A stretch of DNA of 60,337 nucleotides from Candidatus Moraniibacteriota bacterium (GCA_035325685.1 DAOKZJ010000002.1:7309-67645); one strand, 5' to 3'; shown: positions 13,275 through 54,223, counted from the first letter of the stretch. Translations and numbers: made by a program. The notes: a model not told the origin generated them from the letters alone.

Positions 13275-13350
13275 CAAATAAAAAGCACATTTCCGCCGCC
13301 GTTTTCTCCAAAGAATTCGGCGCGGCTTATTTTTTAAACGCACCAAGGGT

Positions 13351-38100: not shown

Positions 38101-38256
38101 GAATTCTAAAAACACGAAACACGAAGTTCGAAACTCGAAACAAATTCGAATGGCAAAAATCGAGATTCAAGTTGTTAAAATATTTTGAATTTTGAAGATT
38201 GGGGATTTTGAATTTATTTCGGATTTCGAATTTCAGATTTCGAATTTATTAAAGAT
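38101..38256. repeat. 156-nt rpsL-rpsG spacer made of CGAA(A/C) words (period 7) facing TTTGAA and TTTCG words (period 7)
   Basis: CGAA at 38115, 38122, 38129, 38136 and 38147. TTTCG/TTTCA at 38217, 38224, 38231 and 38238. TTTGAA at 38184, 38191 and 38207. Confidence 0.85.
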
Positions 38257-38724
38257 ATGGCAAGAAGAGCACGTAAGTACGAAAAAAGATGGCAGCCTGA
38301 CCCCAGGTACGGAAATATCCTGGTGGGACGCTTTGTCGGGCAGATCATGCAAGATGGAAAGCGCAGCACGGCTGAGCGCGTTGTTTATGAATCTTTTGAC
38401 ATAATTCATGAACGCACCAAGAAAGGCGGACTTAACGTTTTTGAACAGGCAATCAAGAATGTTTCGCCGCTGTTGGAGCTCAAAAGTAAGCGCGTAGGGG
38501 GAGCTAATTATCAGGTACCGATGCAGGTCACGGGGGAGCGCCGCCAAACACTGGCGATTCGTTGGATCCTGAGTGCTTGTCGATCGCGCAAGGGACGCAA
38601 GATGGCGGAAAAGCTCGCGGACGAACTGATTGATGCCTCCAATAAAGCCGGTAGCGCCATGAAAAAGCGCGAGGAAGTGCATCGTATGGCTGACGCCAAC
38701 AAGGCTTTTGCTCACTTTGCTTAA
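38257..38724 (+). CDS. rpsG: 30S ribosomal protein S7
   Basis: Full-length S7-like sequence. Confidence 0.97.
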   Translation: MARRARKYEKRWQPDPRYGNILVGRFVGQIMQDGKRSTAERVVYESFDIIHERTKKGGLNVFEQAIKNVSPLLELKSKRVGGANYQVPMQVTGERRQTLAIRWILSACRSRKGRKMAEKLADELIDASNKAGSAMKKREEVHRMADANKAFAHFA

Positions 38725-38729
38725 AAAAT

Positions 38730-38754
38730 AGGACATATGGGACCCATATGTCCT
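38730..38754. promoter_or_regulatory. Perfect palindrome AGGACATATGGG-a-CCCATATGTCCT between rpsG and fusA
   Basis: 12-nt arms seen directly. No T-run follows. Confidence 0.5.
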
Positions 38755-38784
38755 AACTGTCTAAATTATACTTATAAAAAAACC

Positions 38785-40869
38785 ATGGCACGGGAATACC
38801 CCATCGAAAAGTATCGTAATATCGGCATAATCGCCCACATTGACGCCGGCAAAACCACTACCACTGAGCGCGTGCTTTTCTATACCGGAATCACGCATAA
38901 GGTTGGCGAGGTGCATGAAGGAGGAGCGACGATGGACTGGATGGAGCAGGAAAGGGAGCGTGGCATCACCATCACTTCTGCCGCTACCAAATGCTTCTGG
39001 AAGGATCATCAGATCAACATCATCGATACTCCTGGACATGTGGACTTTACCGTAGAAGTGGAAAGATCGCTGCGTGTTTTGGATGGCGGCGTGGTGGTGT
39101 TTGATGGCAAAGAGGGTGTGGAACCGCAATCTGAAACCGTTTGGCGCCAAGCTGACAAATACAGCGTGCCCCGCATCTGTTTTATCAACAAGATTGATAA
39201 GGAAGGGGCTGATTTTGAGGCGGCAATTTCTTCCATTTGGAACCGCCTGACTCCCAATGCCGTGGCCGCCCAGCTTCCGATCGGAGAGCGCGGAGGTTTC
39301 GCCGGGGTGGTGGATCTCTTGAAGATGAAAGCGTATACCTTCGAAGGAGAAATGGGGGAAAAAATTATCGAAGGAGAGGTTCCGGCTGAGCTTTTGGACA
39401 AAGCCAAGCAATGGCGCGAAAAGCTCGTGGAAAAAATATCGGAAACGGATGATGCGCTGACGGAAAAATATCTGGGCGGCGAGGAAATTTCCATTGAAGA
39501 GCTTAAAGCGGCGATGCGTAAAGCGGTTATTGCCACCCGCTTGGTTCCGGTCTTTACCGGAACGGCACTGCGCAACAAAGGCGTGCAGTTGGTGCTGGAT
39601 GCTGTGGTTGATTACTTGCCAAGCCCGATCGATATTCCGGCAGTCAAGGGAACGCATCCCAAAACCGGCGAAGAAATAGAACGCAAAGCTTCCGATGACG
39701 AGCCTTTCAGTGCCCTGGCTTTCAAGGTAGCTACGGATCCGTTTGTGGGGCAGCTTACGTTTTTCCGCGTATACAGCGGAACGCTTAAAGCCGGCTCCTA
39801 TGTGCTTAACTCCACCAAGGGAGAAAAAGAGCGTATTGGACGTATTTTGCAAATGCACGCCAATCACCGTGAGGAGGTGCAGGAAATATATGCCGGAGGG
39901 ATTGGCGCGCTGGTAGGCATGAAGAACACAACCACAGGAGACACGCTTTGCGAGGAATCCAAGCCTGTTATTTTGGAATCCATTACCTTCCCTGAGCCGG
40001 TCATCGATATTGCGGTGGAACCCAAGACCAAAGCCGATCAGGAGAAGATGGGTCTGGCGCTGCGTAAACTTGCGGAAGAAGATCCTACGCTGCGTTTGCG
40101 CACCGACGAAGAAAGCGGACAAACTATTATTTCCGGAATGGGAGAGCTCCATTTGGATATTATCGTGGATCGCATGAAGCGCGAATTCAAAGTGGAAGCG
40201 AATATCGGCCAGCCGCAAGTGGCTTACCGCGAAACGATCAAATCCAGCGCCCAGGCGGAAGGAAAATATATCAAGCAGTCGGGCGGACGCGGACAATACG
40301 GCCATTGTTGGCTCAAAGTGGAACCGCAGGAAGAGAAAGGCAAGGGATATGAATTTGTTGATGAGATAAAGGGAGGCGTTATTCCGCAGGAATTTATTCA
40401 GCCAATCAACAAGGGTGCGCGCGAAGCCTTGGATAACGGCGTAATTGCCGGCTATCCGATGGTGGACGTGAAGGTGACGCTTTACGACGGCTCCTTCCAT
40501 GAAGTGGACTCTTCGGAAGCCGCATTTAAAATCGCGGGTTCGATGGCCGTGCAGGAAGCAGTCAAACGTGCCACTCCGATTATCTTGGAGCCGATCATGA
40601 AGGTGGTGGTTACCACTCCGGAGCAATTCATGGGCGACATAGTGGGAGACATCAATTCCCGCCGCGGCATGATTAAGGAGATTATTGATCGTGGAGAAGG
40701 TAATGCCCGCGTCAAGGAGATTGAAGCGGAAGTGCCATTGGCCAATATGTTTGGCTATGCGACGCAGATGCGTTCCATGACTCAGGGTCGCGCCAATTAT
40801 TCCATGGAGTTCGGTCATTACAGCGAAGTGCCCAAGAATGTGGCTGAAGAGATTATGGCCAAGAAATAA
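38785..40869 (+). CDS. fusA: Elongation factor G
   Basis: [14 protein letters not shown]. The ATG at 38785 gives the canonical N-terminus. Confidence 0.98.
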
Positions 40870-40913
40870 GGCGCAACTTGCATATCCTTAAGACAGGCAA
40901 GCAGGAAAACCCT

Positions 40914-40946
40914 AAAAACAGCTCTTTCGGGAGCTGTTTTGTTTTT
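40914..40946 (+). terminator. Intrinsic terminator after fusA
   Basis: ACAGCTC-tttcgg-GAGCTGT then TTTTGTTTTT. Confidence 0.8.
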
Positions 40947-41074
40947 ATGAAAAGTAACCAAGGAGAGGCGAAATAGCCTTTTGTGTTCAAGGGGTTTTGT
41001 TGTTTTAAAAAACGGCTAAAATAAAGGAAAAATGTAGTAAGAATATCCACATAAAAACAAGATTGACTAGACCC

Positions 41075-41102
41075 TTGACATATATTTTTATTTGTGTAAA
41101 AT
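41075..41102 (+). promoter_or_regulatory. Candidate tuf promoter TTGACA-16-TAAAAT
   Basis: Hexamers at 41075-41080 and 41097-41102. Confidence 0.5.
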
Positions 41103-41126
41103 GAATAGGTAACGTTCCTGTTTCGA

Positions 41127-41152
41127 AAGGCAATTTTGAATTTGCCTTTTTT
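41127..41152 (+). terminator. Terminator-like hairpin in the tuf leader
   Basis: AAGGCAA-ttttgaat-TTGCCTT then T-run, about 25 nt after the predicted TSS. Confidence 0.45.
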
Positions 41153-41259
41153 GCAGAAAGAGTGTATCATTTCTGGTACACAAAATGGTCGCATAATAAA
41201 TTATCTTTAAATTTTTGCAGTCGCCGGTATTGAGATCCGGTACGCGAAAATCAATCAGT

Positions 41260-42453
41260 ATGGCAGCAGAACAATTTGTGCGTTCCAAGCCGCACGTTAA
41301 CGTCGGCACCATCGGTCATGTGGACCACGGAAAGACTACTCTTACAGCAGCTATTTTGCACGTGCTCAGCAAGAAGGGTCTTGCCAAAGAGAGGAATGTG
41401 GATGAAATCGACAACGCTCCCGAGGAGCGCGAGCGCGGTATTACCATTGCTACTTCGCACTGCGAATACGAGTCTGATACGCGCCACTATGCGCATGTGG
41501 ACTGCCCGGGACATGCTGACTACATCAAGAACATGATTACCGGCGCTGCTCAGATGGACGGAGCTATCTTGGTGGTGAGTGCAACTGACGGCCCCATGCC
41601 TCAGACCCGCGAACACATTCTGTTGGCTCGCCAAGTAGGCGTACCTGCTATCGTGGTGTTTATCAACAAGGTAGATATGGTTGATGATCCGGAATTGGTT
41701 GACTTGGTGGAAGCGGAAGTTCGCGAACTGCTCAGTAAGTATGAGTTCGATGGAGACAACGCTGCTATCATTCGCGGAAGCGCCCTGAAGGCCCTCGAAG
41801 CCGGCAGTGCCGAGGAAGAAGCTGCAAAGCCTATTTTGGATCTGATGGCTGCTTTGGATGCTAACATTCCTGAGCCTGTTCGTGAGACTGACAAGCCTTT
41901 CCTGATGCCTGTTGAGGATATCTTCTCCATTGAAGGACGCGGAACGGTAGTAACCGGACGCATTGAGCGTGGAGTTGTTAATATCAACGAGGAAATCGAA
42001 ATTGTAGGTCTGCGCCCAACTTCCAAGACGGTTGTTACTGGCATCGAAATGTTCAACAAGTCGCTTGGCGAAGGAAAGGCCGGAGACAACGCGGGACTTT
42101 TGCTGCGTGGTGTCAAAAAGGAAGATGTGGAGCGCGGACAGGTTTTGGCCAAGCCGGGATCCATCACGCCTCATACCGAATTTGAAGGAGAAGTATATAT
42201 TCTTACCAAGGAAGAAGGCGGTCGCCATACTCCTTTCTTCAAGGGGTACAAGCCGCAGTTCTACATCCGCACCACGGATGTGACCGGAGAAGTTATTTTG
42301 CCGGAAGGAACCGAGATGGTTATGCCTGGAGATACCATTAAGCTGAACATCAAGCTTATCTCTCCGGTGGCCATGGAGGAAGGAATGCGTTTCGCGATTC
42401 GCGAAGGAGGACGCACGGTAGGAGCCGGAGTCTGCACCAAGATTTTGAAATAG
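41260..42453 (+). CDS. tuf: Elongation factor Tu
   Basis: [18 protein letters not shown]. Confidence 0.98.
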
Positions 42454-42575
42454 TGGGCGAGCTAGGCACGTATACGGCCTGTGCTGTATACGTGCTTGTG
42501 TTCTTCCAGTATGCTGGCGCCTTGGGGCACAGCGGGGAACCAGAATATAATTAGTTCATGCATTTGATAACACCG

Positions 42576-42908
42576 ATGGGAGCGAAAAAAACGACGGATA
42601 CGCAGGCTACGCGGATTCGCATCAAGATCAAGGCGTACGATAACAAGGTTATCGACCAATCCGCACGCAAGATCGTCGAAACTGCGGAGCGCACGGGCGC
42701 AAGGATAAGCGGACCAATCCCGCTTCCGACGGAGATCCACAAGATCACGGTTAACCGTTCGACCTTTGTGCACAAGGATGCCCGTGACCAGTACGAGATG
42801 CGCACCCATAAGCGCCTGATCGATATCTGGGAACCAACCGCCAAGACTATTGAGAATTTGACCGGTTTGGATTTGCCTGCAGGAGTTGATATTGAAATAA
42901 AGATGTAG
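42576..42908 (+). CDS. rpsJ: 30S ribosomal protein S10 (start uncertain; alternative 42558)
   Basis: [17 protein letters not shown]. Confidence 0.93.
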
Positions 42909-43060
42909 GAGCTTTGCGTAATTGCGAAAAGTCAGGGCGCGAATTTGGAAAACCATTCCATTGCGCTCATTCGTAACTTGCGCAGCGACACTAGTTAAAG
43001 TCCCGCTTGGTCGGGATACTCAACTAGCCAGTGCCTGAGGCCGCATGGTCCGGGCTTGCG

Positions 43061-43085
43061 AAACTGGCTGTTGCCAGTTTTTTTG
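43061..43085 (+). terminator. Terminator-like hairpin inside the rpsJ-rplC spacer
   Basis: AAACTGGC-tgtt-GCCAGTTT with a trailing T-run. Confidence 0.6.
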
Positions 43086-43117
43086 TTCGGAAACATTTAG
43101 ACGTTAAGAATAAAGCG

Positions 43118-43681
43118 ATGAAATTCATACTCGGAAAGAAGCTTGGCATGACGACGCTGTATGACAAGGAGCGTGGAGCGCTCAATGTCACTTTGGTTCA
43201 GTGCGAGCCGAACACGGTTTCCTGCGTGCGCACCATGGAAAAAGATGGTTACAATGCTGTGCAACTTTCTTTGGCTAAAACCAAAGGCAATGTGCATTGC
43301 TGCGAATTCCGTCTAGAGGAGGCTGCAACGATGGCTGTGGGGGACAAAGTGAGCGCGGAAGCGTTTGCCGTCGGAGATGAGGTTAAGATTTCGGCCGTAA
43401 GCAAAGCCAAGGGATTTCAGGGAGGAGTAAAAAGGCATGGATTTGCGGGAGCACCCAAGACTCACGGACACAAGCATGACTTGCGTGCCCCTGGTTCGAT
43501 TGGAGCTCAGCAGCCGCAGCACGTTATCAAGGGTAAGCGCATGGCGGGGCGCATGGGTGGACGCCGTTCGACAGTTAAAAATGTGCAGGTTGTCCATGTG
43601 GACGCAGCTGCCAATATAATCGCCCTCAAGGGCGCAGTGCCAGGGGTAAGTGGTAGAATAGTGGAAATTTCCGCAATCTAA
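43118..43681 (+). CDS. rplC: 50S ribosomal protein L3
   Basis: MKFILGKKLGMT N-terminus. Confidence 0.94.
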   Translation: MKFILGKKLGMTTLYDKERGALNVTLVQCEPNTVSCVRTMEKDGYNAVQLSLAKTKGNVHCCEFRLEEAATMAVGDKVSAEAFAVGDEVKISAVSKAKGFQGGVKRHGFAGAPKTHGHKHDLRAPGSIGAQQPQHVIKGKRMAGRMGGRRSTVKNVQVVHVDAAANIIALKGAVPGVSGRIVEISAI

Positions 43682-43718
43682 GGAAGGAAAAGAACTCAAT
43701 CAGAATCAATACAAGCAT

Positions 43719-44360
43719 ATGGCGAAAATCGCAGTACATGATTTGGAAGGAAAGAAGGTCGGAGAGATGAATCTCTCGGATGCAGTTTTTGCCGCACCTT
43801 CCAATGATGATCTGCTCAAGCAGGTCTATGTGGCTATCGCGGCCAACAACCGCAATCCTATCGCGCACACCAAGGGCAAGGGAGAAGTTTCCGGCAGCGG
43901 CAAAAAGCCTTTTCGCCAAAAAGGAACAGGCAATGCGCGCCAGGGACAAAAACGCAACCCGGTGATGAAGGGCGGGGGCGTTTCTTTTGGTCCGACCAAT
44001 GAGCGTAATTTTAAGCACAAGGTGAATCGTAAGATGCGCCAAAAAGCACTCAGCGTGGCTTTGAGTGAAAAGATAAGAAAGGGCATGGTTGTTTTGGTGG
44101 ATTCCCTTACTGCCTCCCAGATCAAGACCAAGGCTTACGCTCAGGCATTTTCCAAATTGGGAGTTGCTTCCAGGGATTCCGTATTGGTTGGATTTTCGCA
44201 GCAGGAAAAAACTTCACTTTTGGGAGTGCGCAATATAAACCGCGCGTCCGGAGTGGAAGCCAAGGATCTTAATGTTTTTGACATCCTCAACCATAAGTAC
44301 CTGGTATTGAGCAAATCCTCGGCTGCTGAAATAGAAGCCAAATACGCTCAAGAAAAGTAA
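43719..44360 (+). CDS. rplD: 50S ribosomal protein L4
   Basis: Sequence and operon position. Confidence 0.94.
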   Translation: MAKIAVHDLEGKKVGEMNLSDAVFAAPSNDDLLKQVYVAIAANNRNPIAHTKGKGEVSGSGKKPFRQKGTGNARQGQKRNPVMKGGGVSFGPTNERNFKHKVNRKMRQKALSVALSEKIRKGMVVLVDSLTASQIKTKAYAQAFSKLGVASRDSVLVGFSQQEKTSLLGVRNINRASGVEAKDLNVFDILNHKYLVLSKSSAAEIEAKYAQEK

Positions 44361-44387
44361 ATCGCATAGACCAATCAAGATATCCGT

Positions 44388-44723
44388 ATGGCAAAGGCAG
44401 AGAAAAACAAGAAGGTGGCAAAGGCTCAGATCAAGGCCGAGCAAGCACAACGCGTGCTTATGGAGCCTTGGATTACCGAGAAGTCCCACCTGGGAATGCA
44501 GCAAGGCAAATATGTGTTCAAGGTGGCGCGCCGGGCAACTAAGGCAGAAGTGAAGCGCGCGATCGAAGGACTGTATGGTGTTAACGTTAAGGCAGTGGCC
44601 ATGGTCAATCTGCCGAGCAAGCCCAAGAGTTACGGAAGGCATGTGCGAGTGGTCGCTCCGATACGCAAGGCGGTAGTCACGCTTTCAGCCGGGGAGTCTA
44701 TAGAAATCATGCAAGGAGCGTAA
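44388..44723 (+). CDS. rplW: 50S ribosomal protein L23
   Basis: Sequence and operon position. Confidence 0.9.
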   Translation: MAKAEKNKKVAKAQIKAEQAQRVLMEPWITEKSHLGMQQGKYVFKVARRATKAEVKRAIEGLYGVNVKAVAMVNLPSKPKSYGRHVRVVAPIRKAVVTLSAGESIEIMQGA

Positions 44724-44790
44724 GAATGCATAATGCATAAGTTGCAACGCCGAGCGCTTGGCGCTACGCGGTCTGCAAGCTAAGAAAACT

Positions 44791-45618
44791 ATGGCAATTA
44801 AGGTTTACAAGAAAAACACCGCTGGACGGCGCAATATGTCTGTTGTCAAGCCGGAAGGCGTGAGCAAAAAGGATCCTGAAAAGAGGCTCCTTGCTAAGCT
44901 TTCCAAGAAAGCTGGACGCGCGGGTGGTAAAATAGCCGTACGTCATAAAGGGGGCGGCCATAAACGCCGTTACCGCATCGTGGATTTTGCCCAGCGCAAA
45001 CTGGAGATCCCAGGTAAGATTGTGGCTCTGGAAAAAGATCCAAATCGTAGCGCGCTGATCGCTCTTATTTCTTACCGCGACGGCGACAAGCGCTATATCT
45101 TGGCTACCGAAGGAATGAAGGAGGGGATGGAAATAGTCTCTTCCGAGAATGCTCCTATCAAAAAAGGTAACCGTACCAAGCTTAAGAATATTCCGGTAGG
45201 AACGGTTGTTTGCAATGTGGAGTTTACTCCTGGCAAAGGCGGACAGTTTGTGCGCAGTGCAGGAAGTGGAGCTTCGCTCATGGCTATTGATGGTAAGTAT
45301 GCCCAACTCAAACTCTCCTCTGGGGAGGTGCGCCTAGTCAACAGTGATTGCTTTGCCAGCATTGGACAAGTGAGTAACTTCGAGCACGGAGCGGAGAATA
45401 TTGGCAAGGCTGGGCGTAGTCGTCATTTAGGCAAGCGTCCGGCAGTGCGCGGAAGCGCCATGAATCCGGTTGACCATCCGCACGGAGGAGGAGAAGGTCG
45501 TCAGCCGATCGGACTCAAATATCCCAAGACTCCTTGGGGTAGGCCGGCACTCGGTACGCGTACTCGCAAGAAGAAGCGTTACAGCAGCAGGTTTATCGTA
45601 AAACGCAGAAGCAAGTAA
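44791..45618 (+). CDS. rplB: 50S ribosomal protein L2
   Basis: [14 protein letters not shown] and [12 protein letters not shown]. Confidence 0.97.
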
Positions 45619-45649
45619 GGGCTCATAAAGAGATTTCAATCATAAGATT

Positions 45650-45988
45650 ATGGCAAGAAGTTTGAAGAAAGGGCTGTATGTCGATGAGCGCGTTCTCAAG
45701 AAAGTGCTTGCGACGAAGCCAGGAGAAAAGGCGATAAAGACTTGGTCTCGCGCCTGCACTATCTCTCCGGAGATGATCGGTTACACCTTCGCGGTGCATA
45801 ACGGCAAAGATTTTGTTTCGGTTTATGTGACCGAAGAAATGGTCGGACATCGCCTGGGAGAGTTTTCTCCGACACGCAAGTTCCTTCGTCACGGAGGAAA
45901 GATGCAAAAGGAGATGGAAATGGCTGCCAAGCAAAAAGCTTTGGATGCCGCTAAGGCTGCCAAAGCTGACACCGGAAAGAAGAAGTAA
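45650..45988 (+). CDS. rpsS: 30S ribosomal protein S19 with a Lys/Ala-rich C-terminal tail
   Basis: [16 protein letters not shown]. Confidence 0.95.
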
Positions 45989-46084
45989 AGTAATTAGCGA
46001 TACGAAAAATACGAATTTGCGTTAGAACGATACGAATAATTTCGTAAAAATCGTGTCCATTCGTAAATTCATATCGGTGAAAAT
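45989..46084. repeat. TACGAA / TTCGTA word spacer
   Basis: TACGAA at 46001, 46010 and 46031. TTCGTA at 46041 and 46060. Confidence 0.8.
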
Positions 46085-46663
46085 ATGAAAGTAACTGCAA
46101 CCCTGAAAAATTTAAGGACTTCGCCACGCAAAGTGCGATTGGTGGCTGAGGCGATAAAAGGCATGGATGCCAATGCCGCCCTGATTCAGCTTCCTTTTAT
46201 CGTGAAAAAATCCAGCCATGACTTAGAAAAACTTCTTCGCAGCGCCATCGCCAATGCCCGCAACAATTTCGGGATAGATGTCGACAACTTGCTTGTCGAG
46301 GAAGTGCGCGTAGGTGAGGGTCCTCGCTTGAAGCGCTGGCTTCCTCGCGCTTACGGAAGAGCCACGCTTATTTTGAAGCGCACCTCCCATATCTCATTGA
46401 CAGTTGCGGAGAAGGTTGAGGGCAAAAACAGACTGAGTCAGGAAGAATTAGCTAAGGAGCGCACCAAGCGTGCTGAGGCCAAACGCAAAGCGCTAGAATC
46501 CCTTGCTGCGGAACAGGAAATGATGGAAAAAGAGCAGGCTGAGCAGGAAGAAAGCAAATCCGCCGAAAAGAAAGCCCCGCGCGTCAACAAGAAAGGTTCC
46601 ATGGCAGCAAAAAAGGGGCAAGATGGATTTTTGAAGAAGGTCTTTCAGCGCAAAGCAGCATAA
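46085..46663 (+). CDS. rplV: 50S ribosomal protein L22 with an approximately 80-aa charged C-terminal extension
   Basis: L22 core followed by an EKE/KRK-rich tail. Confidence 0.9.
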   Translation: MKVTATLKNLRTSPRKVRLVAEAIKGMDANAALIQLPFIVKKSSHDLEKLLRSAIANARNNFGIDVDNLLVEEVRVGEGPRLKRWLPRAYGRATLILKRTSHISLTVAEKVEGKNRLSQEELAKERTKRAEAKRKALESLAAEQEMMEKEQAEQEESKSAEKKAPRVNKKGSMAAKKGQDGFLKKVFQRKAA

Positions 46664-46670
46664 TTAAAAA

Positions 46671-46765
46671 ATACGAAGCTCGAATATCGAAATTCGAAAC
46701 GAGCGCGGGCATCATTGGGTTAAATGACCTGCATTAGTTTCGGATTTCGGATTTCGGATTTCGGA
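46671..46765. repeat. Heptad dyad element: four CGAA words (period 7), a 34-nt core, then (TTTCGGA)x4
   Basis: CGAA at 46674, 46681, 46688 and 46695. TTTCGGA at 46738, 46745, 46752 and 46759. Confidence 0.9.
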
Positions 46766-46780
46766 TTTACTTAAGATACT

Positions 46781-47422
46781 ATGGGACATAAAGTCAACCC
46801 TACAGGACTGAGACTCGGAATAACCACTAACTGGGCTTCACGTTGGTTTGAAAGCAAGGACTACGTCCGCAAGCTGCGCGAAGATGTGCAGATGCGTGAA
46901 TTTGTGGCCAAGAAATGGAAACACGCGGCTATTGCTAGTGTGGAAATCGAAAGGAGCGCCAACACCATTCGCCTGATCGTCAGAACTTCGCGTCCCGGAG
47001 TGCTGATTGGGCGCGGAGGAAGTGGGATAGAGGATATGGCCGCCATTATCAAAAAGCGTTTCTTTGCTGGTCGCCGGGTGGATCTGCGTATTGAAGCTCA
47101 AGAAATTCGCCAGTTTGAAGAAAACGCGTCCTTGGTCGCGCAAAGCGTAGCCGAGCAATTGGAAAAGCGTATGCCCTTCCGCCGGGTTCTTAAGTCCACA
47201 CTTGACCAGGTGGAAAAGAGCCGCATTGTCAAGGGAGTTAAGATAGAAGTGAGCGGACGTTTGGGCGGAGCGGAAATGAGCAGGCGTGAATGGTTGAGTC
47301 GCGGCACGGTTCCGCTTCATACGTTGCGTGCAGATATAGATTTCGCTCGTGCTACGGCGCACACCACGTATGGGGCTATCGGAGTGAAAGTTTGGATTTA
47401 CAAAGGGGAAGTTTTTGAATAA
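46781..47422 (+). CDS. rpsC: 30S ribosomal protein S3
   Basis: [13 protein letters not shown]. Confidence 0.96.
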
Positions 47423-47544
47423 AAGGAGTTGCAAATTGCCCGCGAATATTTACGAATTTACGAAAAGGATAAGAAAACCTAAGGGTCGGTAAAAGGAAAT
47501 GCAGGTTGGTACGTTTGTACGATCAGTATTTCGTAGGAAAAAAT
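47423..47544. repeat. TACGAA / TTCGTA word spacer
   Basis: TACGAA at 47451 and 47459. GTACG occurs twice, and TTCGTA is at 47530. Confidence 0.7.
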
Positions 47545-47958
47545 ATGTTGATGCCAAAGAAAGTTAAACATCGCAAGATCCATCGCGGAGGACAAATTCG
47601 TGGTGTTGCTACCAAGGGTAACGAAGTCAGCTTCGGCAGCTTCGGACTCAAGGCGGTTGACTCAGGACTTATTTCCGCCCGTCAGATTGAAGCCGCTCGT
47701 CGAGCCATGACTCGCTACATCAAGCGCGGAGGAAAAATATGGATTCGCATCTTTCCGGATAAGCCGATGACTAAGAAAGGAGAGCAGACGCCGATGGGTA
47801 AAGGAAAGGGAAGCGTGGACCATTTTGTGGCTCGCACCAAACGCGGCAAGATGCTGTTCGAGATGGACGGTGTGGCCGAAGAGGTGGCGCGCGAAGCGAT
47901 GCGTTTGGCTTCGCATAAGTTGTGCGTCAAGACAAGATTTGTAAGCAAGCACAAATAA
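47545..47958 (+). CDS. rplP: 50S ribosomal protein L16
   Basis: [15 protein letters not shown]. Confidence 0.96.
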
Positions 47959-47978
47959 GAAGCTTTGCCAAAAAAGGT

Positions 47979-48173
47979 ATGAAGATCAAGCAGATAATGG
48001 AAATGGAAAATTCCCAGCTCGAAGCGCTCATCGCTGAGCAGCGCGAAAAGGTTGTGAAAGCCCGCTTTGAAGGGGCTTTGCGTCAAGCCAAAAATACCAA
48101 GCAAGGGGCTGAGGCTCGTCGCATGATAGCCAAAGCGCTTACCGTGCTTGCCCAGCGCTCGATGGAAAAATAA
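47979..48173 (+). CDS. rpmC: 50S ribosomal protein L29
   Basis: Size, helical sequence and operon position. Confidence 0.85.
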   Translation: MKIKQIMEMENSQLEALIAEQREKVVKARFEGALRQAKNTKQGAEARRMIAKALTVLAQRSMEK

Positions 48174-48196
48174 GCACACAATAAAGTAGTATTCGT

Positions 48197-48436
48197 ATGA
48201 CACAAGAAACGAAGAAGCTTATCCGCAAGAAGGGGATGGTGGTGAGTGCCAAAACCCCCAAGACGCTGGTGGTCGCGGTGGAAAGCTACAAGACCCATCC
48301 TAAATATCTCAAGAAGTATCGCTCCACCAAGAAGTACAAGGTGCATGATCCGGAGAGCTCTTTCAAGGTCGGGGATGTGGTGGAATTTGCTCCGTGCCGT
48401 CCGGTAAGTAAGGATAAGCGATATATAGTTTTATAG
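48197..48436 (+). CDS. rpsQ: 30S ribosomal protein S17
   Basis: Sequence and operon position. Confidence 0.9.
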   Translation: MTQETKKLIRKKGMVVSAKTPKTLVVAVESYKTHPKYLKKYRSTKKYKVHDPESSFKVGDVVEFAPCRPVSKDKRYIVL

Positions 48437-48536
48437 AGTAACCAACAACTGACAGTCAATAACTGGCAGCGGCAAGGAAGAGGGATTGGTCCCGGCCGAA
48501 TGCGAGTTAAAAGCTTTAAGTTGTAAATGGAATAAT

Positions 48537-48902
48537 ATGATTCAAGCAGAGACACAGCTCAAAGTCGCAGACAATACCGGAGCCAAGATCATTGAATGTT
48601 TCAAGGTTCTGGGTGGAACGCGTCGTCGCTATGCCGCAATCGGAGATGTGATCGTGGCGTCAGTTAAGTCTGCGGAGCCGCGCGGTGTAGTTAAGAAGGG
48701 AGATAAGGTACGAGCGGTTATTGTACGCCAGGCCCAAGCATTGCGTCGCAAAGACGGGTCATACATCCGTTTTGACGAAAATGCCGCGGTTATCATCGAT
48801 GGCAAAGAGCCAAAAGGAACGCGTATCTTTGGTCCTATCGCGCGCGAGTTGCGCGACAAGGGGTATTCCAAGATTGTTTCCTTGGCTCCGGAAGTTTTGT
48901 AA
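48537..48902 (+). CDS. rplN: 50S ribosomal protein L14
   Basis: [17 protein letters not shown]. Confidence 0.97.
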
Positions 48903-49077
48903 GTATTCTACGAATTACCCGCCTCGACTCGCAGAGACAACCGCTTGTCGGTGCGAGACGGGCGAACTTTACGAATGTACGAAAGTTTCGTGGTTCAAAA
49001 GCGGGATTTTAAAGATTCAAGTCAAGAGAAGATGGATTCGTACCTTCGTACAATTCGTACTTCGTAGAGAAAAACCT
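48903..49077. repeat. 175-nt rplN-rplX spacer: TACGAA words, a GC-rich nested hairpin, then (TTCGTA)x4
   Basis: TACGAA at 48909, 48970 and 48978. TTCGTA at 49037, 49045, 49054 and 49061. Confidence 0.85.
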
Positions 49078-49380
49078 ATGAGAATAAAGAAAGGAGACAT
49101 GGTGAGGGTATTGGCCGGCAAGAGCAAGGGCCATATCGGAAAAGTCCTGCGCGTCCTTCCCAAGGCCGGCAAAGTGGTGGTGGAGAAGGCTAATATGGTT
49201 ACCAAGCATATAAAGGCCAAGCGCGAAGGCATGCCCGGACAAAAAGTCCAATTGGAGGCGCCGCTCGATGCGTCCAACGCCATGCTGGTGTGTCCCAGCT
49301 GCAACAAGACTACGCGTCTGGCGGCAAGTACGGGAAAGGAAAAAGCGAGAGTTTGTAAGAAGTGCGGCAAAGAGTTTTAA
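49078..49380 (+). CDS. rplX: 50S ribosomal protein L24 with a CxxC...CxxC C-terminus
   Basis: MRIKKGDMVRVLAGKSKG KOW motif, and the C-terminus CPSCNK..CKKCG. Confidence 0.9.
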   Translation: MRIKKGDMVRVLAGKSKGHIGKVLRVLPKAGKVVVEKANMVTKHIKAKREGMPGQKVQLEAPLDASNAMLVCPSCNKTTRLAASTGKEKARVCKKCGKEF

Positions 49381-49399
49381 GTCCAGCTAGCTAAAGCGT

Positions 49400-49951
49400 A
49401 TGAAAATCATTCCAGTAAAAGAGAAATATGCCAAGACGGTAGCGGCGGAATTAGCCAAGGAATTTGGTTATTCTTCTGCGATGGCCGTTCCGCGTATCCA
49501 GAAAGTGGTCGTCAATGTCGGAATCGGCAAGATAACCAAAGAGAGCGAGAAAGTTGACGAGATAATGGAGTCGCTTACGGCGATTACCGGTCAGCGTCCG
49601 GTAAAGACTATGGCGCACCGCGCTATTGCCGGCTTCAAGGTTCGTCAGGGCATGGAAGTGGGAATAAAGGTAACGTTACGCGGAGAGCGCATGTGGAATT
49701 TTATCGATCGAGTTATCAATTCCACCCTCCCTCGCACGCGCGACTTTCAGGGAATAGATCCTAGGGCGGTGGATGGCAGTGGAAACCTCAATATCGGCAT
49801 TCGCGAACATCTCATTTTTCCGGAAATATCACCTGAAAAAGCCAAGCATATTTTCGGGATGCAGATTACGGTGGTAAGCAGTACGACAAATCGCAAGGAA
49901 GGATTAGCTCTGTATCGTAAAGTAGGGTTTCCGCTCAAGGAAGAAAAATAA
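49400..49951 (+). CDS. rplE: 50S ribosomal protein L5
   Basis: Sequence and operon position. Confidence 0.95.
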   Translation: MKIIPVKEKYAKTVAAELAKEFGYSSAMAVPRIQKVVVNVGIGKITKESEKVDEIMESLTAITGQRPVKTMAHRAIAGFKVRQGMEVGIKVTLRGERMWNFIDRVINSTLPRTRDFQGIDPRAVDGSGNLNIGIREHLIFPEISPEKAKHIFGMQITVVSSTTNRKEGLALYRKVGFPLKEEK

Positions 49952-49993
49952 TTGCAAAGTAATTAGCTTTAGCTACGAATTTTACACTGGTAT

Positions 49994-50179
49994 ATGGCAA
50001 AGACATCAACCATGGCACGTTCGCAGAAGAAGCCGAAGTTTTCCACCCGCGTCGTAAGGCGTTGTTGGAAATGCGGACGCAAACACGGCTATCTGCGCGC
50101 GTTCGACATCTGCCGCATCTGTTTCCGCGAGCTCGCCAGCAAAGGGGAGCTTCCGGGAGTGAAGAAAAGCAGCTGGTAA
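49994..50179 (+). CDS. rpsN: 30S ribosomal protein S14, Zn-ribbon type Z (61 aa)
   Basis: [16 protein letters not shown]. Confidence 0.94.
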
Positions 50180-50274
50180 GGGAGAATAATCGCATAACGC
50201 ATAAAGTAAACGCGCAGCGCGAAGGATAAATGATGCCGATGGGCATAAGCCTTAAGCGCCGCAAGATTAAAATT

Positions 50275-50679
50275 ATGTTGGATCCAATTGCAGACATGCT
50301 GACAAGAATACGCAACGCCCAGCGCGCAGGACATGCGACCGTGGGGGTGCCTTTCTCGAAGCTGAAGCTCGGAATCGCCAAAATCCTCAAGGATCATGGC
50401 TTCATAGCTTCCGTTTCCGAGGATAAGACCGGAAAATTCCCGGTTTTGAGGCTGGCCCTTAATTACGAGTCGTCCTCCAACACGCGTCGTATCCCGGTAA
50501 TTTCCGGAATTCGTCGTGTAAGTCGCCAAGGCCAGCGCGTATACGTCAAGCGTAGCGACATCCGTCGGGTTAAAAATGGATATGGCATTTCGATCGTCTC
50601 TACCTCGAAAGGCCTAATGACTGGAGATGCAGCTCGCAAGAGCGGACTCGGAGGGGAGATCGTTTGTGAGGTATGGTAA
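50275..50679 (+). CDS. rpsH: 30S ribosomal protein S8
   Basis: MLDPIADMLTRIRNA. Confidence 0.96.
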   Translation: MLDPIADMLTRIRNAQRAGHATVGVPFSKLKLGIAKILKDHGFIASVSEDKTGKFPVLRLALNYESSSNTRRIPVISGIRRVSRQGQRVYVKRSDIRRVKNGYGISIVSTSKGLMTGDAARKSGLGGEIVCEVW

Positions 50680-50796
50680 AACAATGCTAGTCGGCTAATA
50701 AATGCCGATCACTGAAGAAAAAGATTCAAAGAGAGGCATATTTATTGGCAAACAGACGGGCATTTATTCGCATCATTAGCATAGTAGTAAAAACTT

Positions 50797-51333
50797 ATGA
50801 GCAGAATAGGAAAGAAACCGATCGCTCTGCCGCAAGGAGTCACGGTTTCCGTGGAAAAAGGGCAGGTTAGCGTGAAGGGACCCAAAGGTGCACTGGAATT
50901 TATGCATCACCTCGACGTGACGGTTTCCGTTACGGATGGCTTGGTGAGCGTGGAAAAGGTCGGCAAGTCCAAGAAGGCTCCGGCAATCTGGGGTACGACC
51001 GCCCGCATCATTGAGAATATGGTTACCGGCGTGGCGCAAGGATTCCAGAGGCAGCTTGAGCTCAACGGAGTCGGTTACCGCATGGCTATTTCCGGCAAAA
51101 AGATCAATATGGCCCTGGGCTTCTCTCATCCGGTGGAGGTCACTGTTCCGGAAGGATTGGAAGCCAAGATAGAAGGCAATGTACTTACGGTAAGCGGGAT
51201 AGATAAGCAGCGGGTTGGGCAGTTCGCAGCCAACATCCGCGCACTTAAACCTGTCGAGCCTTACAAAGGCAAGGGATTCAAATACGTGGGAGAACATGTG
51301 CGTCGCAAGGAAGGTAAAAAGAGTGCCAAATAA
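50797..51333 (+). CDS. rplF: 50S ribosomal protein L6
   Basis: MSRIGKKPIALPQGV. Confidence 0.96.
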   Translation: MSRIGKKPIALPQGVTVSVEKGQVSVKGPKGALEFMHHLDVTVSVTDGLVSVEKVGKSKKAPAIWGTTARIIENMVTGVAQGFQRQLELNGVGYRMAISGKKINMALGFSHPVEVTVPEGLEAKIEGNVLTVSGIDKQRVGQFAANIRALKPVEPYKGKGFKYVGEHVRRKEGKKSAK

Positions 51334-51384
51334 GCGCTCAAAGTTAGCTATATAAGTTAAAGTTACACACTGACTAAGAATAAT

Positions 51385-51735
51385 ATGAACAAGGTAGGTA
51401 GGAACAATATGCGCGCACAGAGGCAGCGTCGGGTCCGCTCCAAGATTTCCGGAACCGCCCAACGCCCTCGTCTGGCTGTTTTTCGCTCGCTGCGCAGTAT
51501 GTATGTGCAAGCCATCGATGACGTGGCGGGAAAGACCTTGGCTGCGGTGCGCCTGGAGGAAGTTAAGGGCGCAAGCAACACCGTCGAAGGTGCACGCGAG
51601 TTGGGCAAGCTTCTTTCTGCCAAGCTCAAAGGCTTGGGGATAGAAAAAGCTGTTTTTGACCGTGCTGGCTACCGCTACCATGGTCGCGTCCGCGCTTTGG
51701 CGGAGGGGGCGCGTGAAGGCGGACTTTCGTTTTAA
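51385..51735 (+). CDS. rplR: 50S ribosomal protein L18
   Basis: RPRLAVFRS..YHGRV. Confidence 0.93.
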   Translation: MNKVGRNNMRAQRQRRVRSKISGTAQRPRLAVFRSLRSMYVQAIDDVAGKTLAAVRLEEVKGASNTVEGARELGKLLSAKLKGLGIEKAVFDRAGYRYHGRVRALAEGAREGGLSF

Positions 51736-51762
51736 TTTTACTCAAGCTAAGACTTTTGCAGT

Positions 51763-52263
51763 ATGGCGACAAAGCACAACAAGCGGCCTCAGCGCCGCAG
51801 GGAGAAGCCTGAATTTGAACAGAAAATGCTCGATTTGGCGCGCGTAACGCGCGTAGTTAAGGGCGGACGCCGCTTTCGTTTCCGCGCGACCCTGGTTATT
51901 GGGGATCGCAAAGGGCGCGTAGGTGTGGGCGTTGCCAAAGGTTCGGATGTTTCTGATTCTATTCAGAAAGCATACAATGATGCGCGTAAGAATCTCATAA
52001 CGGTGGAATTGGCTGGCAATACTATTCCGCACGACGCTTCCCAAAAGCTCGGCAGCGCCAAAGTGCTACTCAAGCCAGCTAGCGAGGGTCGCGGAGTGAT
52101 CGCTGGAGGAGCGGTGCGTGCAGTGGTGGATTTGGCAGGAATACGCGATATCGTTTCCAAATCGCTCGGCTCATCCAATAAGCTCAATGTGGCCCGCGCC
52201 ACCGTCGAAGCTTTGAAGAAGCTCAAACAGCCTCGCGAAAAAGAAGCTAAGGACGCTAAATAA
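51763..52263 (+). CDS. rpsE: 30S ribosomal protein S5
   Basis: VTRVVKGGRRFRF. Confidence 0.96.
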   Translation: MATKHNKRPQRRREKPEFEQKMLDLARVTRVVKGGRRFRFRATLVIGDRKGRVGVGVAKGSDVSDSIQKAYNDARKNLITVELAGNTIPHDASQKLGSAKVLLKPASEGRGVIAGGAVRAVVDLAGIRDIVSKSLGSSNKLNVARATVEALKKLKQPREKEAKDAK

Positions 52264-52316
52264 TTTCCGCGATTTACGCACGGTAAGACGTAAGTTACAA
52301 GTTGTAAGTTAAATAT

Positions 52317-52748
52317 ATGCAGATCCATGAAATAACCACTGCCAAGCGCAAAGAGCGCAAAACGGTAGGGCGCGGTGGTAAGCGCGGAACATATTCCGGA
52401 CGCGGCAACAAGGGACAAAAAGCTCGCTCTGGCGGTTCGGTGGACCCATTGTTTGAAGGTGGACGCTCTTCACTTGTTGAGCGCTTAAAGAAAGTGCGCG
52501 GATTCAAATCCATGCATCCCAAGAAAGTCACTGTTAAGCTTTCCGCTTTGGACAAGGCTTATGCGGATGGCGAAACTGTTTCACTAGAGACGCTGGTAGC
52601 CAAGGGGATTGTCGCCAAAAAAGATGTTAACCGGGGAGCCAAGATTGTGGCTACCGGAAATCTTTCCAAAAAACTTACCATCGTAGGAGTTTTGGTGTCC
52701 GGTGCAGCTTCCGAGGTTATTAAGCAATCCGGAGGAAGCGTGGAATAG
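52317..52748 (+). CDS. rplO: 50S ribosomal protein L15 (follows S5 directly; no L30 gene)
   Basis: GRGGKRGTYSGRGNKGQK. The gap after rpsE is only 53 nt. Confidence 0.93.
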   Translation: MQIHEITTAKRKERKTVGRGGKRGTYSGRGNKGQKARSGGSVDPLFEGGRSSLVERLKKVRGFKSMHPKKVTVKLSALDKAYADGETVSLETLVAKGIVAKKDVNRGAKIVATGNLSKKLTIVGVLVSGAASEVIKQSGGSVE

Positions 52749-52830
52749 CGGTTTGGTTTTTCCGCGTGCGGTTTTGCATTTCCTGAAAAATCGCAATGGC
52801 TATAAAGCTAACGCTTAACAAATTGGACAC

Positions 52831-54102
52831 ATGTTGGAAAAAATAACCACAATCTTCAAGATTAAGGAGTTGCGCGATAAAATTATTTTTATCGCCGCTT
52901 TACTGGTAGTTTTTCGTTTGGCGGCCAATGTCCCGCTTCCCGGCGTGGATGCTGCGCAACTCAAAAATCTTTTGGAGGGGAATCAATTTTTTGGTTTGCT
53001 CAATATTTTTTCCGGAGGAGGATTTTCCAACATTTCCATTGTGCTTTTGGGCGTAGGGCCTTACATTACCGCTTCCATTATCATGCAGCTGCTCACCATG
53101 ATTGTGCCGCGGCTGGAGCAGCTCTACAAGGAAGAAGGAGAAGCCGGAAGGCAAAAGTTCAACATGGTGACGCGGTATTTGACCGTGCCGCTGGCCGCTT
53201 TGCAGACATTTGGCATGATTTCCTTGCTTCGTTCTCAGCAGGTCTTGGGGGTGTTGAGCGCTTTTGAAATGTCTTCCATTGTCATCATTGCCACGGCGGG
53301 AACTATTTTCCTGATGTGGATTGGTGAATTAATCACCGAAAGGGGAATTGGCAACGGCGTGTCCTTCATCATTTTTGCCGGTATCGTCGCGGGTCTTCCT
53401 GCGACCGTATCCCAACTTTTCCTCACTTTTGACTCCACTCAATTTTTTTCTTATCTTTCGATTGCGGCAGTAACTCTGGTTACGATTGCGGGAGTAGTTG
53501 CGATGACGGAAGGGCAGCGCAATATTCCGGTTTCCTATGCTAAGCGCGTGCGCGGTGCCAACCTTATGGGCTCGGGAAGCTCGCATTTGCCGCTGCGCGT
53601 CAATCAGGCCGGAGTGATTCCGATCATTTTTGCCGTTTCCATCATGCTTATCCCGAACATGCTGGCCAGTTTTTTTGCGTCTTCCAAGATCGAAGCTTTA
53701 GCCAAGGCCGCTACGGCAATTGGCTCTCTTTTGCAAAATCAGCTCCTTTACGGCGCTCTTTACTTTGTTTTGGTCGTGCTTTTTACTTATTTTTACACGG
53801 CGGTAGTTTTTGATCCGGAAAAGATTGCCGAAAACTTGCAAAAGCAAGGCGGATATATCCCGGGCATTCGTCCGGGGCGTCCTACGGCGGATCATCTTTA
53901 TCGCATCATGAATCGCATCACGCTGGCCGGCGCGCTCTTTTTGGGGGCGATTGCGGTTTTGCCAATGATTGTCCAAGGGGCCACTAATATAGCAACTTTG
54001 CAAATCGGCGGCACCAGCATCCTTATTGCTGTTTCAGTCGTGATTGAGACGATCAAGCAGATCGAGGGCCAATTGGTTATGCGCGATTACGAAGGATTCT
54101 GA
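52831..54102 (+). CDS. secY: Preprotein translocase SecY
   Basis: 10-TM protein with a canonical N-terminus and the GIRPG motif. Confidence 0.97.
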   Translation: MLEKITTIFKIKELRDKIIFIAALLVVFRLAANVPLPGVDAAQLKNLLEGNQFFGLLNIFSGGGFSNISIVLLGVGPYITASIIMQLLTMIVPRLEQLYKEEGEAGRQKFNMVTRYLTVPLAALQTFGMISLLRSQQVLGVLSAFEMSSIVIIATAGTIFLMWIGELITERGIGNGVSFIIFAGIVAGLPATVSQLFLTFDSTQFFSYLSIAAVTLVTIAGVVAMTEGQRNIPVSYAKRVRGANLMGSGSSHLPLRVNQAGVIPIIFAVSIMLIPNMLASFFASSKIEALAKAATAIGSLLQNQLLYGALYFVLVVLFTYFYTAVVFDPEKIAENLQKQGGYIPGIRPGRPTADHLYRIMNRITLAGALFLGAIAVLPMIVQGATNIATLQIGGTSILIAVSVVIETIKQIEGQLVMRDYEGF

Positions 54103-54223
54103 TTGAAATCACTAACATTTTCTAATCTGACAAAAAGATAGATCTTTTTGTTTCACGAATTTACGCGAAGGCGATTGGTGGTGATGGGGTGTGATTGGCG
54201 TAGATTGGTGATCGATATTATCA

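Follow-up and report, generated by a model that had tools for sequence, protein, structure and literature searches.

The ribosomal protein cluster and its spacers

The stretch of DNA analyzed here, referred to throughout as the window, comprises 60,337 nucleotides of a Candidatus Moraniibacteriota bacterium (GCA_035325685.1, DAOKZJ010000002.1:7309-67645), and the closest matches to its RpsC come from metagenome-assembled genomes (MAGs) of Candidatus Moranbacteria/Moraniibacteriota. Positions 37678-55762 carry rpsL-rpsG-fusA, tuf-rpsJ, and then rplC through adk and map (Pfam and gene calls on orthologous contigs). Our subject is the spacers between these genes and a few others elsewhere in the window, several of which hold word-armed hairpins, i.e., elements with a 5' arm of short repeated words, a core, and a 3' arm of complementary words. 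The evidence base consists of the window, loci fetched from relatives (L numbers) and public read sets (X numbers). Intergenic DNA makes up 13% of the window, all window copies are intergenic, and within the cluster all neighbors of the elements are ribosomal protein (r-protein) genes (Pfam and orthology).

A preliminary description of this DNA had listed eight long spacers and, with start codons set by orthology, all eight lengths proved correct: rpsL-rpsG 156, rpsJ-rplC 209, rpsS-rplV 96, rplV-rpsC 117, rpsC-rplP 122, rplN-rplX 175, rpsH-rplF 117, and secY-adk 121 nt. The coordinates given for the words were accurate within 1-2 nt. The claim that most of these spacers share one architecture was overstated, as clear word-armed hairpins are present in four of the eight and the others differ, and the proposed period of about 7 nt suits the CGAAA family (7) but not the TACGAA family (7/10/8). 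In the lines below, z compares the minimum free energy (MFE) of the fold with 200 dinucleotide shuffles, arrays were called with Tandem Repeats Finder (TRF), and the detector requires a 5-mer repeated at least twice within 32 nt and then its reverse complement repeated at least twice within 160 nt.

38101-38256, plus strand: rpsL-rpsG spacer, hairpin of the CGAAA/TTTCGR family with 5' words at ~38110-38150 and 3' words at ~38205-38247; inner ATTCAA/TTTTGAA words, stem 38115-38242, MFE -42.1, z -4.7, TRF period-7 arrays 38110-38142 and 38216-38247
42911-42985, plus strand: 5' part of the rpsJ-rplC spacer, word-armed hairpin TTGCGWAA / TTCGTAAC..GCGCA; whole-spacer fold z -3.9
45989-46084, plus strand: rpsS-rplV spacer, short TACGAA-family hairpin with TACGAA at 46001, 46010, and 46031 and TTCGTA at 46041 and 46060; z -2.4, detector match
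46664-46780, plus strand: rplV-rpsC spacer, the cleanest element, with a 5' arm of xCGAAxx words (46669-46701), a GC-rich core (46702-46736), a 3' arm (TTTCGGA)x4.4 (46738-46768), and a 12-nt tail before the rpsC ATG; MFE -40.3, z -6.3, TRF 100% matches
47423-47544, plus strand: rpsC-rplP spacer, degenerate TACGAA remnant with no stable hairpin (z +0.74); TACGAA at 47451 and 47459, a single TTCGTA at 47530
48903-49077, plus strand: rplN-rplX spacer, TACGAA-family element with TACGAA at 48909, 48970, and 48978, TTCGTA at 49037, 49045, 49054, and 49061, and a tail GAGAAAAACCT ahead of the ATG; z -3.9
48918-48962, plus strand: nested insertion, a GC-rich hairpin of 45 nt that folds on itself, lodged within the 5' arm of the rplN-rplX element, where it separates TACGAA words 1 and 2
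3355-3491, plus strand: word hairpin outside the r-protein cluster, ATATCAA/TTTCAAAT words versus (ATTTGAA)x4.6; z -2.1, detector match, TRF arrays 3387-3405 and 3454-3485
58493-58590, plus strand: word hairpin, AAAGTTx versus TTTGTAAAC, period 9; called by TRF, z -2.3, detector match
59866-60036, plus strand: array pair, ACATGTA versus (TACATGC)n; detector match, TRF arrays 59882-59905 and 59947-59999, whole-spacer fold unexceptional (z -0.5)
8383-8473, no strand assigned: small folded hairpin between two minus-strand genes, ATCGCTAA x2 / TTAGCGAT; TRF array 8404-8419

The rpsJ-rplC spacer is composite, joining its word hairpin to a separate conserved leader-like hairpin and a terminator-like stem. 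These, together with the spacers that are not built of inverted words, are as follows.

42989-43088, plus strand: leader-like feature of the rpsJ-rplC spacer with no word element, consisting of the hairpin CTAGTTAAAGTC..GATACTCAACTAGCC, a small variable hairpin, and a terminator-like CTGGCTGTTGCCAG followed by a T-run
50680-50796, plus strand: rpsH-rplF spacer, a plain imperfect inverted repeat, not word-built; z -4.0
52283-52310, plus strand: direct GTAAG(TT) words upstream of rplO that lack an inverted partner; partly kept in the sister-lineage contig L081, where the copy number differs
54103-54223, plus strand: secY-adk spacer, not a dyad word element; small hairpin AAAAAGATAGATCTTTTT (~54129-54152) and direct GATTGG words at 54173, 54193, and 54203; z -2.2

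Word arrays against chance expectation

The detector returned seven intergenic sites in the window, compared with 0.89±0.82 (maximum 3) in 100 shuffles that kept dinucleotides within each coding or intergenic segment, and 11 of the 12 period-7 arrays called by TRF are intergenic. Shuffled sequence does not reproduce the periodicity and the dyads, and the spacers of relatives at orthologous loci have the same architecture. Both controls agree with the early proposal that this is a real class of intergenic RNA/DNA elements and not AT-rich filler. The further suggestion of a genome-wide class held over the range examined, i.e., the 60-kb window and the relatives' loci, and the class is wider than was proposed. 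The predicted stems have 25-45 pairs, which places them among the long helices (at least 20 bp, inside a transcript) typical of RNase III sites.

Placement between stop and start codons

Placement was measured for 121 spacers with long hairpins, taken from the r-protein clusters of 25 loci of the Candidate Phyla Radiation (CPR). The median distance is 4 nt from the stop codon to the stem and 10 nt from the stem to the next start, the latter with a sharp mode at 8-11 nt, bearing out the observation that the 3' arm stops just short of the next gene. The flanks left unpaired sum to a median of 14 nt (interquartile range (IQR) 10-22; 115 hairpins, a set that omits the fusA, tuf, and rpsJ junctions) versus 19 nt (IQR 8-32) for hairpin-free spacers of these loci. 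Most simply, this geometry would arise if the hairpins inserted into ordinary compact spacers and selection kept approximately the last 10 nt before the AUG free. Such a reading accounts for the 3' arm ending at the position of a Shine-Dalgarno (SD) sequence, and makes the folded spacer topologically a compact spacer with a side branch. GGAGG is indeed absent before these starts, yet this is a trait of the entire window and not of the long spacers alone, as SD-like motifs (GGAG, GAGG, or AGGA at -22 to -5) precede only 8 of its 75 genes. An impression that the A/C-rich arm comes first was rejected (61 vs 53).

Families shared between genomes and with phage

Seven relatives differ greatly in junction length. 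L004 and L007 have compact junctions, mostly of 8-35 nt; expansion is seen in the window, L001, L003, and L005, each time at different junctions. The long spacers of the relatives are word-armed hairpins with other words (ACTAACA/GTTGTAA, TTCACAG/CTGTTAA, AAATGTTT, ATTTCAA). The rplN-rplX junction, for example, measures 1-38 nt in many lineages, and four word families fill it in the window/L081/L082, L003, L005, and L088. Two further loci found with the RplX cluster (L166, L167) have the spacer layout of the window itself. R-protein junctions of at least 55 nt number 213 of 437 in CPR, versus 19% in non-CPR loci. Across orthologous loci, period-7 arrays occur at 27.5 per 100 kb in 14 Moranbacteria-like loci, 27.6 in 16 other CPR loci, and 6.5 in 30 non-CPR loci; enrichment extends to periods 8 and 14 but not to 6, 9, and 12. 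Paired word arrays, counted when backed by at least two 5-mers, exceed local shuffles in all three sets (29 vs 2.5±1.4 in Moranbacteria-like, 40 vs 2.0 in other CPR, and 24 vs 4.3 in non-CPR loci). The word vocabulary is broad, with 102 distinct, mostly A/T-rich heptamers in 190 arrays. No variation in unit number was seen in the form of spacer indels between strains ~99.7% identical.

The TACGAA family has a fixed arm plan, TACGAA-N1-TACGAA-N4-TACGAA-N2-TACGAA ... TTCGTA-N2-TTCGTA-N3/4-TTCGTA-N1-TTCGTA, which is common to L081 and the window (rplN-rplX), L002 (rpsC-rplP), and L005 and occupies different junctions in genomes with 60-76% RpsC identity. Its words are invariant, the unpaired spacers between them are variable, and the loops are unrelated between genomes. 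The internal loops are fixed (1x1, 4x3-4, 2x2), and the two outermost pairs change in a compensatory manner (CT..AG vs TC..GA). Locus L005 alone holds seven copies in 20 kb, four of them near-identical including the loop; the L005 copies have 16-nt terminal inverted repeats (CTTACGAATTACGAAT / ATTCGTAATTCGTAAG), and the flanks of four of them share nothing, i.e., no target-site duplication was found. Matches to the 3' arm also occur in L082, L088, and the Liptonbacteria locus L009, ending 9-14 nt before the ATG in several cases, and L082 has four arm matches in total (one 5', three 3'). The TACGAA arm pattern had 0 matches in IMG/VR.

A second family, CAAAAAT/ATTTTGN, has a conserved loop; its four copies, three of them in L082 and the fourth in L081, each occupy a different junction. 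In both CGAAA/TTTCGR elements of the window, outer CGAAA words enclose inner ATTCAA/TTTTGAA words, and this nested plan recurs at rplW-rplB of L082, in the Saccharibacteria locus L013, and in IMG/VR contigs of 58-64% GC (L171, L174). L171 (64% GC) is clearly a phage and carries a TCCGAAA/TTTCGGA hairpin at 3520-3690 between the portal and the head protease/major-head genes. Its 5' arm codes for ~20 C-terminal residues of the portal protein and its 3' arm adjoins GGAGG-N10-ATG; L176 has the same sequence as this element. Six of the nine phage-contig matches are direct-only arrays.

In bioreactor run X7, (TTTCGGA)4 31-mers reach a depth of ~1600 versus 6 for the flanks, many of them in contexts unlike those flanks, and these 31-mers recur at very many other loci of the communities. 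Short-read contigs of DNA runs X3 and X4 and the L081 contig all stop at this array (window 46738-46768), i.e., such elements break short-read assemblies at (TTTCGGA)4.

As to associated genes, neither PF05635 (S23p/IVP) nor a transposase-like gene was found among the 10 small open reading frames (ORFs) of the window that were scanned, and a scan for arms 200-900 nt apart recovered only neighboring elements flanking ordinary genes. Word arrays of the same style (GATTCGA, ATTCCAG, AGTTGCT/AGCAACT, AAACTTG) were also seen beside r-protein genes in non-CPR or unassigned contigs (Acidobacteriota MAG L037 at 6670-7393, 11286-12201, and 13141-13988; L154 at 8064-8398; L115 at 10363-10687), and the phenomenon is therefore not confined to Patescibacteria. 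Separately, a large conserved hairpin of ~130-165 nt, TCCCGCACCAAATTCCGAA ... TTGGTGCGGGATGCTCA, without a match in Rfam, occupies different r-protein spacers in three Moranbacteria-like genomes (L005 15815-15979; L002 ~2020-2160; L082 ~13330-13460 and 15845-15875).

Conservation against the sister lineage

The sister lineage is represented by L081 (a Logan contig, RpsC 98% identical) and by matching contigs in run X7 only; RpsN had no entry on record, the closest metagenome match in a RplN scan was at 86%, and nothing nearer turned up there. The window and L081 share 92% protein identity and 53% identity at 1007 four-fold sites, and neutral sites are therefore close to saturation. Two elements are conserved far above this level. 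That of rplN-rplX is identical at 127 of 130 positions (P about 3e-31) and includes a 101-nt exact run, the longest in the 10.7 kb alignment, with the flanking codons differing at third positions up to the stop; it is single copy by depth in three DNA runs. In rplV-rpsC, the arms and basal core pairs show 0 changes in ~100 nt, the apical loop having four substitutions and four single-base deletions. As the loop has diverged, the whole spacer was not exchanged recently. From these alignments we read the two frozen elements as being under purifying selection, since unbiased conversion between arms would not slow divergence between lineages.

The remaining spacers have fared differently. Those of rpsL-rpsG, rpsC-rplP, part of rpsQ-rplN, rpsH-rplF, and secY-adk are unalignable or hold other families; for instance, L081 has a CAAAAAT/ATTTTGA-family hairpin at rpsC-rplP instead of the TACGAA remnant, a different hairpin at rpsH-rplF, and a different secY-adk spacer as well. 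The 45-nt nested insertion of the rplN-rplX element is missing from L081 and from an L081-like X7 contig. It has no further copy in the window and the collected relatives' loci and no target-site duplication beyond a 1-nt ambiguity, and is a second, unrelated kind of small insertion.

Two candidates were discarded. A third frozen hairpin seemed to be present at rpsL-rpsG, where a 1094-nt X7 contig (window 38039-39129) shows 0 differences over 38039-38420 and then 70. This contig, ~10% different after 38420, is probably a chimera of two lineages that occur together, or else recombinant, and was not used as evidence; a separate 695-nt contig of the 84-88% lineage has a different, shorter rpsL-rpsG spacer. 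A coding role was considered for the rplN-rplX spacer, in which the rplX frame is open throughout, but two 1-nt indels relative to L081 put its middle portion out of frame, and the ORF is therefore not conserved.

Besides the hairpins, the window and L081 are identical over the 15-40 nt before the starts and the first 20-55 nt of many r-protein genes (e.g., 48191-48231, 49954-50046, 50257-50339, 50796-50837, and 51715-51767), and exact-match stretches (26-55) lie at most gene starts. In a genome that makes so little use of SD motifs, such identity indicates that the nucleotide sequence of translation-initiation regions is under strong selection.

Transcription and the form of the elements

The preliminary description spoke of operons broken by the spacers, which does not apply at the level of transcription. 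The full lengths of the rpsL-rpsG, rpsS-rplV, rplN-rplX, and rpsH-rplF spacers are covered by contigs of four RNA runs from sludge (45589-46358 covers rpsS-rplV and 48868-49093 covers rplN-rplX), i.e., these four spacers are transcribed in polycistronic mRNA, with a caveat of DNA carry-over. No terminator-like or promoter-like site was found in the word hairpins of the cluster. Plus-strand terminator-like sites in its spacers are limited to 40915, 40975, 42463, and 43060, falling after fusA, after tuf, and inside the rpsJ-rplC spacer (43060-43081), and strong promoter-like sites to those before rpsL and before tuf. Rfam gave no match at gathering score for the window and six related loci, a permissive scan yielding only a chance microRNA (E=0.43).

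Three functional forms had been left open, namely an RNA hairpin, a protein-binding repeat array, and a slippage product. Pure slippage is the least supported of them, because families are common to several genomes and two copies are frozen. The hairpin form gains support because the outer pairs are compensatory and a self-folding insertion is tolerated, two sequence features that favor a folded hairpin rather than a linear duplex site. The position of the elements with respect to stop and start codons speaks for an involvement of the mRNA; strand folding, mismatch counts, and arm orientation do not separate RNA from DNA.

The CTAGTTAAAGTC..GATACTCAACTAGCC leader of the rpsJ-rplC spacer, with variable apical inserts, recurs at the same junction in nine further loci (L001, L002, L003, L005, L082, L084, L085, L088, and L166) from ~7 distinct genomes, with no Rfam match. 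Its first hairpin ends on the 3' side in AGCCAG, which could base-pair with the 5' strand of the terminator stem CTGGCT..AGCCAG in an antiterminator-like manner. Judging from this arrangement, the leader is a candidate r-protein-responsive attenuator of the rplC operon. Elsewhere in the cluster, the fusA ORF can be extended by 16 codons upstream of its conserved MAREYP start (window 38737-38784); this N-terminal extension is probably untranslated, leaving a 60-nt rpsG-fusA spacer.

Origin and possible role

We consider, with a confidence a little above even, that the elements are several families of small (~60-130 nt) gene-less palindromic repeats, REPIN/MITE-like, which colonize compact operon spacers and of which some copies are kept by the host. 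The arms are conserved and the loops free, the copies lie at different junctions, some genomes carry several that are nearly identical, no target-site duplication accompanies them, and one family extends across phyla and into phage. Such copies would spread within and between genomes, phages included, via a copy or cut mechanism recognizing the folded arms, as RAYT and IS200/IS605 enzymes act on single-stranded DNA hairpins. They would land in ordinary operon spacers of 10-30 nt and survive only where ~10 nt before the next AUG remain free. As the spacer is predicted to fold into one long hairpin, the stop and the next start would stay ~14 unpaired nt apart, and an unpaired spacer of compact length would avoid Rho loading and the loss of translational coupling. 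Frozen copies may subsequently have been recruited to the service of the host, likeliest as an intercistronic mRNA hairpin, acting either in RNase III-type processing/stabilization or as a clamp that is opened by the terminating ribosome to free the next start.

Several observations speak against this interpretation. Beyond their arms, the elements are not multi-copy within the 60-kb window, and the open word vocabulary fits a generic generating process as well as it does many separate families. The preference for 7 nt is explained neither by colonization nor by any of its three rivals below (a protein-binding regulatory device, a replication or repair by-product, and a DNA-level role). In the comparison with the sister lineage, five spacers out of seven show no conservation, and the frozen copies show zero, not compensatory, changes, which fit sequence recognition or inter-lineage transfer as well as structure; with two lineages compared, short element-limited exchange between lineages co-occurring in X7 fits as well. 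The RNA-run contigs were assembled at depth 2-5 and may include DNA carry-over. The plus strand folds better in 27 of 33 window spacers between plus-strand genes, but also in 5 of 5 between minus-strand genes. The effect follows GC skew and not transcription, and sense-versus-antisense folding was therefore rejected as a test of RNA selection. No strand asymmetry was found among 143 CPR hairpins (G.U pairs 464 sense vs 423 antisense, A.C mismatches 73 vs 89), and the arm orientation relative to the gene is unbiased (61:53).

Part of this evidence would suit dedicated cis-regulatory RNAs, a proposal that we hold to be unlikely. The words would bind a single-strand-binding protein with a site of ~6-7 nt (cold-shock, S1, or a TRAP-/HutP-like ring) and the partner arm would mask the sites. 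Opening of the hairpin, by the bound protein or by upstream translation, would then determine how the next cistron is translated, the spread of families being secondary. Consistent with such a role, both arms of two elements are conserved everywhere, with no compensatory or G.U changes while four-fold sites are near saturation, the stretches of 15-55 nt round start codons are frozen too, and SD-like motifs are as scarce as described above (8/75 genes). The 3' arm usually ending ~10 nt before the AUG, and TACGAA words that are invariant while the unpaired sequence between them varies, agree with it as well. TAACTGA heptamer arrays likewise end immediately upstream of start codons, and translational control has been proposed for them (PMC4679880), CspB binding one heptamer per protein according to MacGregor 2015 (PMC4679880). 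However, the 102 heptamers in 190 arrays are not all readable by one sequence-specific protein, which argues against any single word-specific reader. With random arm orientation, the U-rich arm is not consistently beside the start; most elements differ between the sister lineages; and the same family sits in a 64%-GC phage, upstream of a gene with GGAGG.

The breadth of the mostly A/T-rich vocabulary and the private words of many spacers are what a functionless by-product of replication and repair would leave behind, slippage expanding the units, template switching or hairpin-templated repair inverting them, and operons tolerating only what folds on itself. Some arrays are direct only (the GTAAG, GATTGG, and ATGCATA words of the window; six of the nine phage-contig matches), both strands fold equally well, arm orientation is random, and heptamer repeats are enriched in several unrelated phyla (PMC4692102, PMC4679880). 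Such an origin is nevertheless improbable given the identical word spacing at different junctions of genomes with 60-76% RpsC identity, the multi-copy families with conserved loops (L005, L082), and the nested plan that one family shares across phyla. Moreover, there are no unit-number differences in strains ~0.3% apart, and two orthologous copies are frozen against a background of 53% four-fold identity.

To much the same limited degree, we can envisage a widespread cis-acting RNA module for SD-less operons that spreads horizontally, found here in Patescibacteria and, in the case of one family, in phage contigs too. The closed hairpin would hold the stop and the next AUG ~14 nt apart and mask the standby region; a terminating ribosome would then melt the basal 8-10 pairs, exposing the words to S1 or a Csp-type protein at one OB-fold domain per 7-nt word, such that the 7-nt period would correspond to the OB-fold footprint. 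Neighboring cistrons would be strictly coupled in translation, and selfish spread and host benefit would coincide.

A role at the DNA level, as nucleoid-protein or gyrase sites like those of Escherichia coli BIME/REP or as cruciforms relieving supercoiling in highly transcribed operons, would fit the symmetry of the strands in fold stability and mismatch types, the random arm orientation, and the enrichment in the most heavily transcribed cluster examined, but it is very improbable, in that the 45-nt insertion between words 1 and 2 alters duplex spacing and would be harmless in a folded hairpin, and in that the tight placement by stop and start codons points to mRNA. Binding of gyrase and IHF to REP/BIME is well established.

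Comparison with known systems

Full-text literature searches returned no description of such elements in Patescibacteria. What this analysis contributes is an arm plan that stays fixed from genome to genome, a copy in phage, the argument from the summed flanks, and the finding that at near-saturated neutral divergence some copies are frozen and others replaced. Patescibacteria genomes are among the smallest and most compact, yet about half of the junctions within their most highly expressed operons hold ~100 nt of extra, highly ordered sequence. If the elements are selfish, they would constitute a little-known mobile class, with no known enzyme, that crosses phyla and enters phages; if the frozen copies are functional, they would represent a way of organizing polycistronic translation or mRNA processing in mostly SD-less bacteria.

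Among small non-coding inverted repeats, Neisseria Correia, enterobacterial ERIC, and pneumococcal RUP/BOX elements are co-transcribed, form mRNA hairpins, and are possible RNase III targets or stabilizers. They resemble the present elements in lying between genes, but their terminal repeats are of unique sequence, and Correia and RUP have target-site duplications, whereas here the arms are internally repetitive. The RNase III hairpins of phage T7 early genes are likewise imperfect intercistronic hairpins with internal loops; the T7 sites, however, are not repeat families and their cleavage has been demonstrated. Rickettsia RPE palindromes can join a reading frame, as does the L171 copy at the portal C-terminus, but RPEs insert in frame within genes and the window copies are all intergenic. 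Compared with MITEs, terminal inverted repeats are present (L005 copies) and target-site duplications were not found.

Among the closest known systems is the REP/REPIN/BIME group, mobilized by RAYT transposases (Bertels & Rainey 2011, PMC3116915; Di Nocera et al. 2013, PMC3733652), which like the present elements comprises hairpins of ~70-130 nt with two inverted conserved arms and a variable loop. Both are extragenic, often intra-operon and co-transcribed, multi-copy across species, and devoid of target-site duplications. The REP unit, however, is an imperfect palindrome of 20-40 bp with a GTAG or CGTC tag at one end (PMC3733652), while the arms described here are tandem runs of 6-8-nt words that are not self-complementary, and many word families coexist. 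The TACGAA family reads 5'-CTAC...GTAG-3', the opposite tag order, with GTAG only inside the outermost TTCGTAG word. The elements thus share with this group the two inverted arms, the multiple copies, and the extragenic location, but not the palindromic unit. CRISPR and TIGR-Tas arrays were rejected on architecture, the latter being tandem interspaced arrays beside a Tas (Nop-domain) gene (PMC12045711); here we have single hairpins with r-protein neighbors and no array.

Heptamer repeats offer another parallel (cyanobacterial STRR; TAACTGA of Beggiatoaceae, PMC4679880; GGGAATC of Xanthomonas and Nostoc, PMC4692102). They too are intergenic 7-nt tandems, often close to starts, and their patchy phylogenetic distribution also suggests horizontal spread. 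The published arrays are nearly all direct and are built from a single fixed heptamer or a small set of them; in the Beggiatoa genome, 169 heptamer sets are direct and one is inverted (PMC4679880). The elements described here have the intergenic enrichment of 7-nt tandems in common with them and lack the restriction to a few fixed direct heptamers: inverted pairs make up one hairpin, the units number more than 100, and the setting is between r-protein cistrons. Whichever of the above interpretations applies, the heptamer repeats of cyanobacteria, Beggiatoa, and Xanthomonas, long a puzzle, are hereby linked to a defined and testable hairpin architecture.

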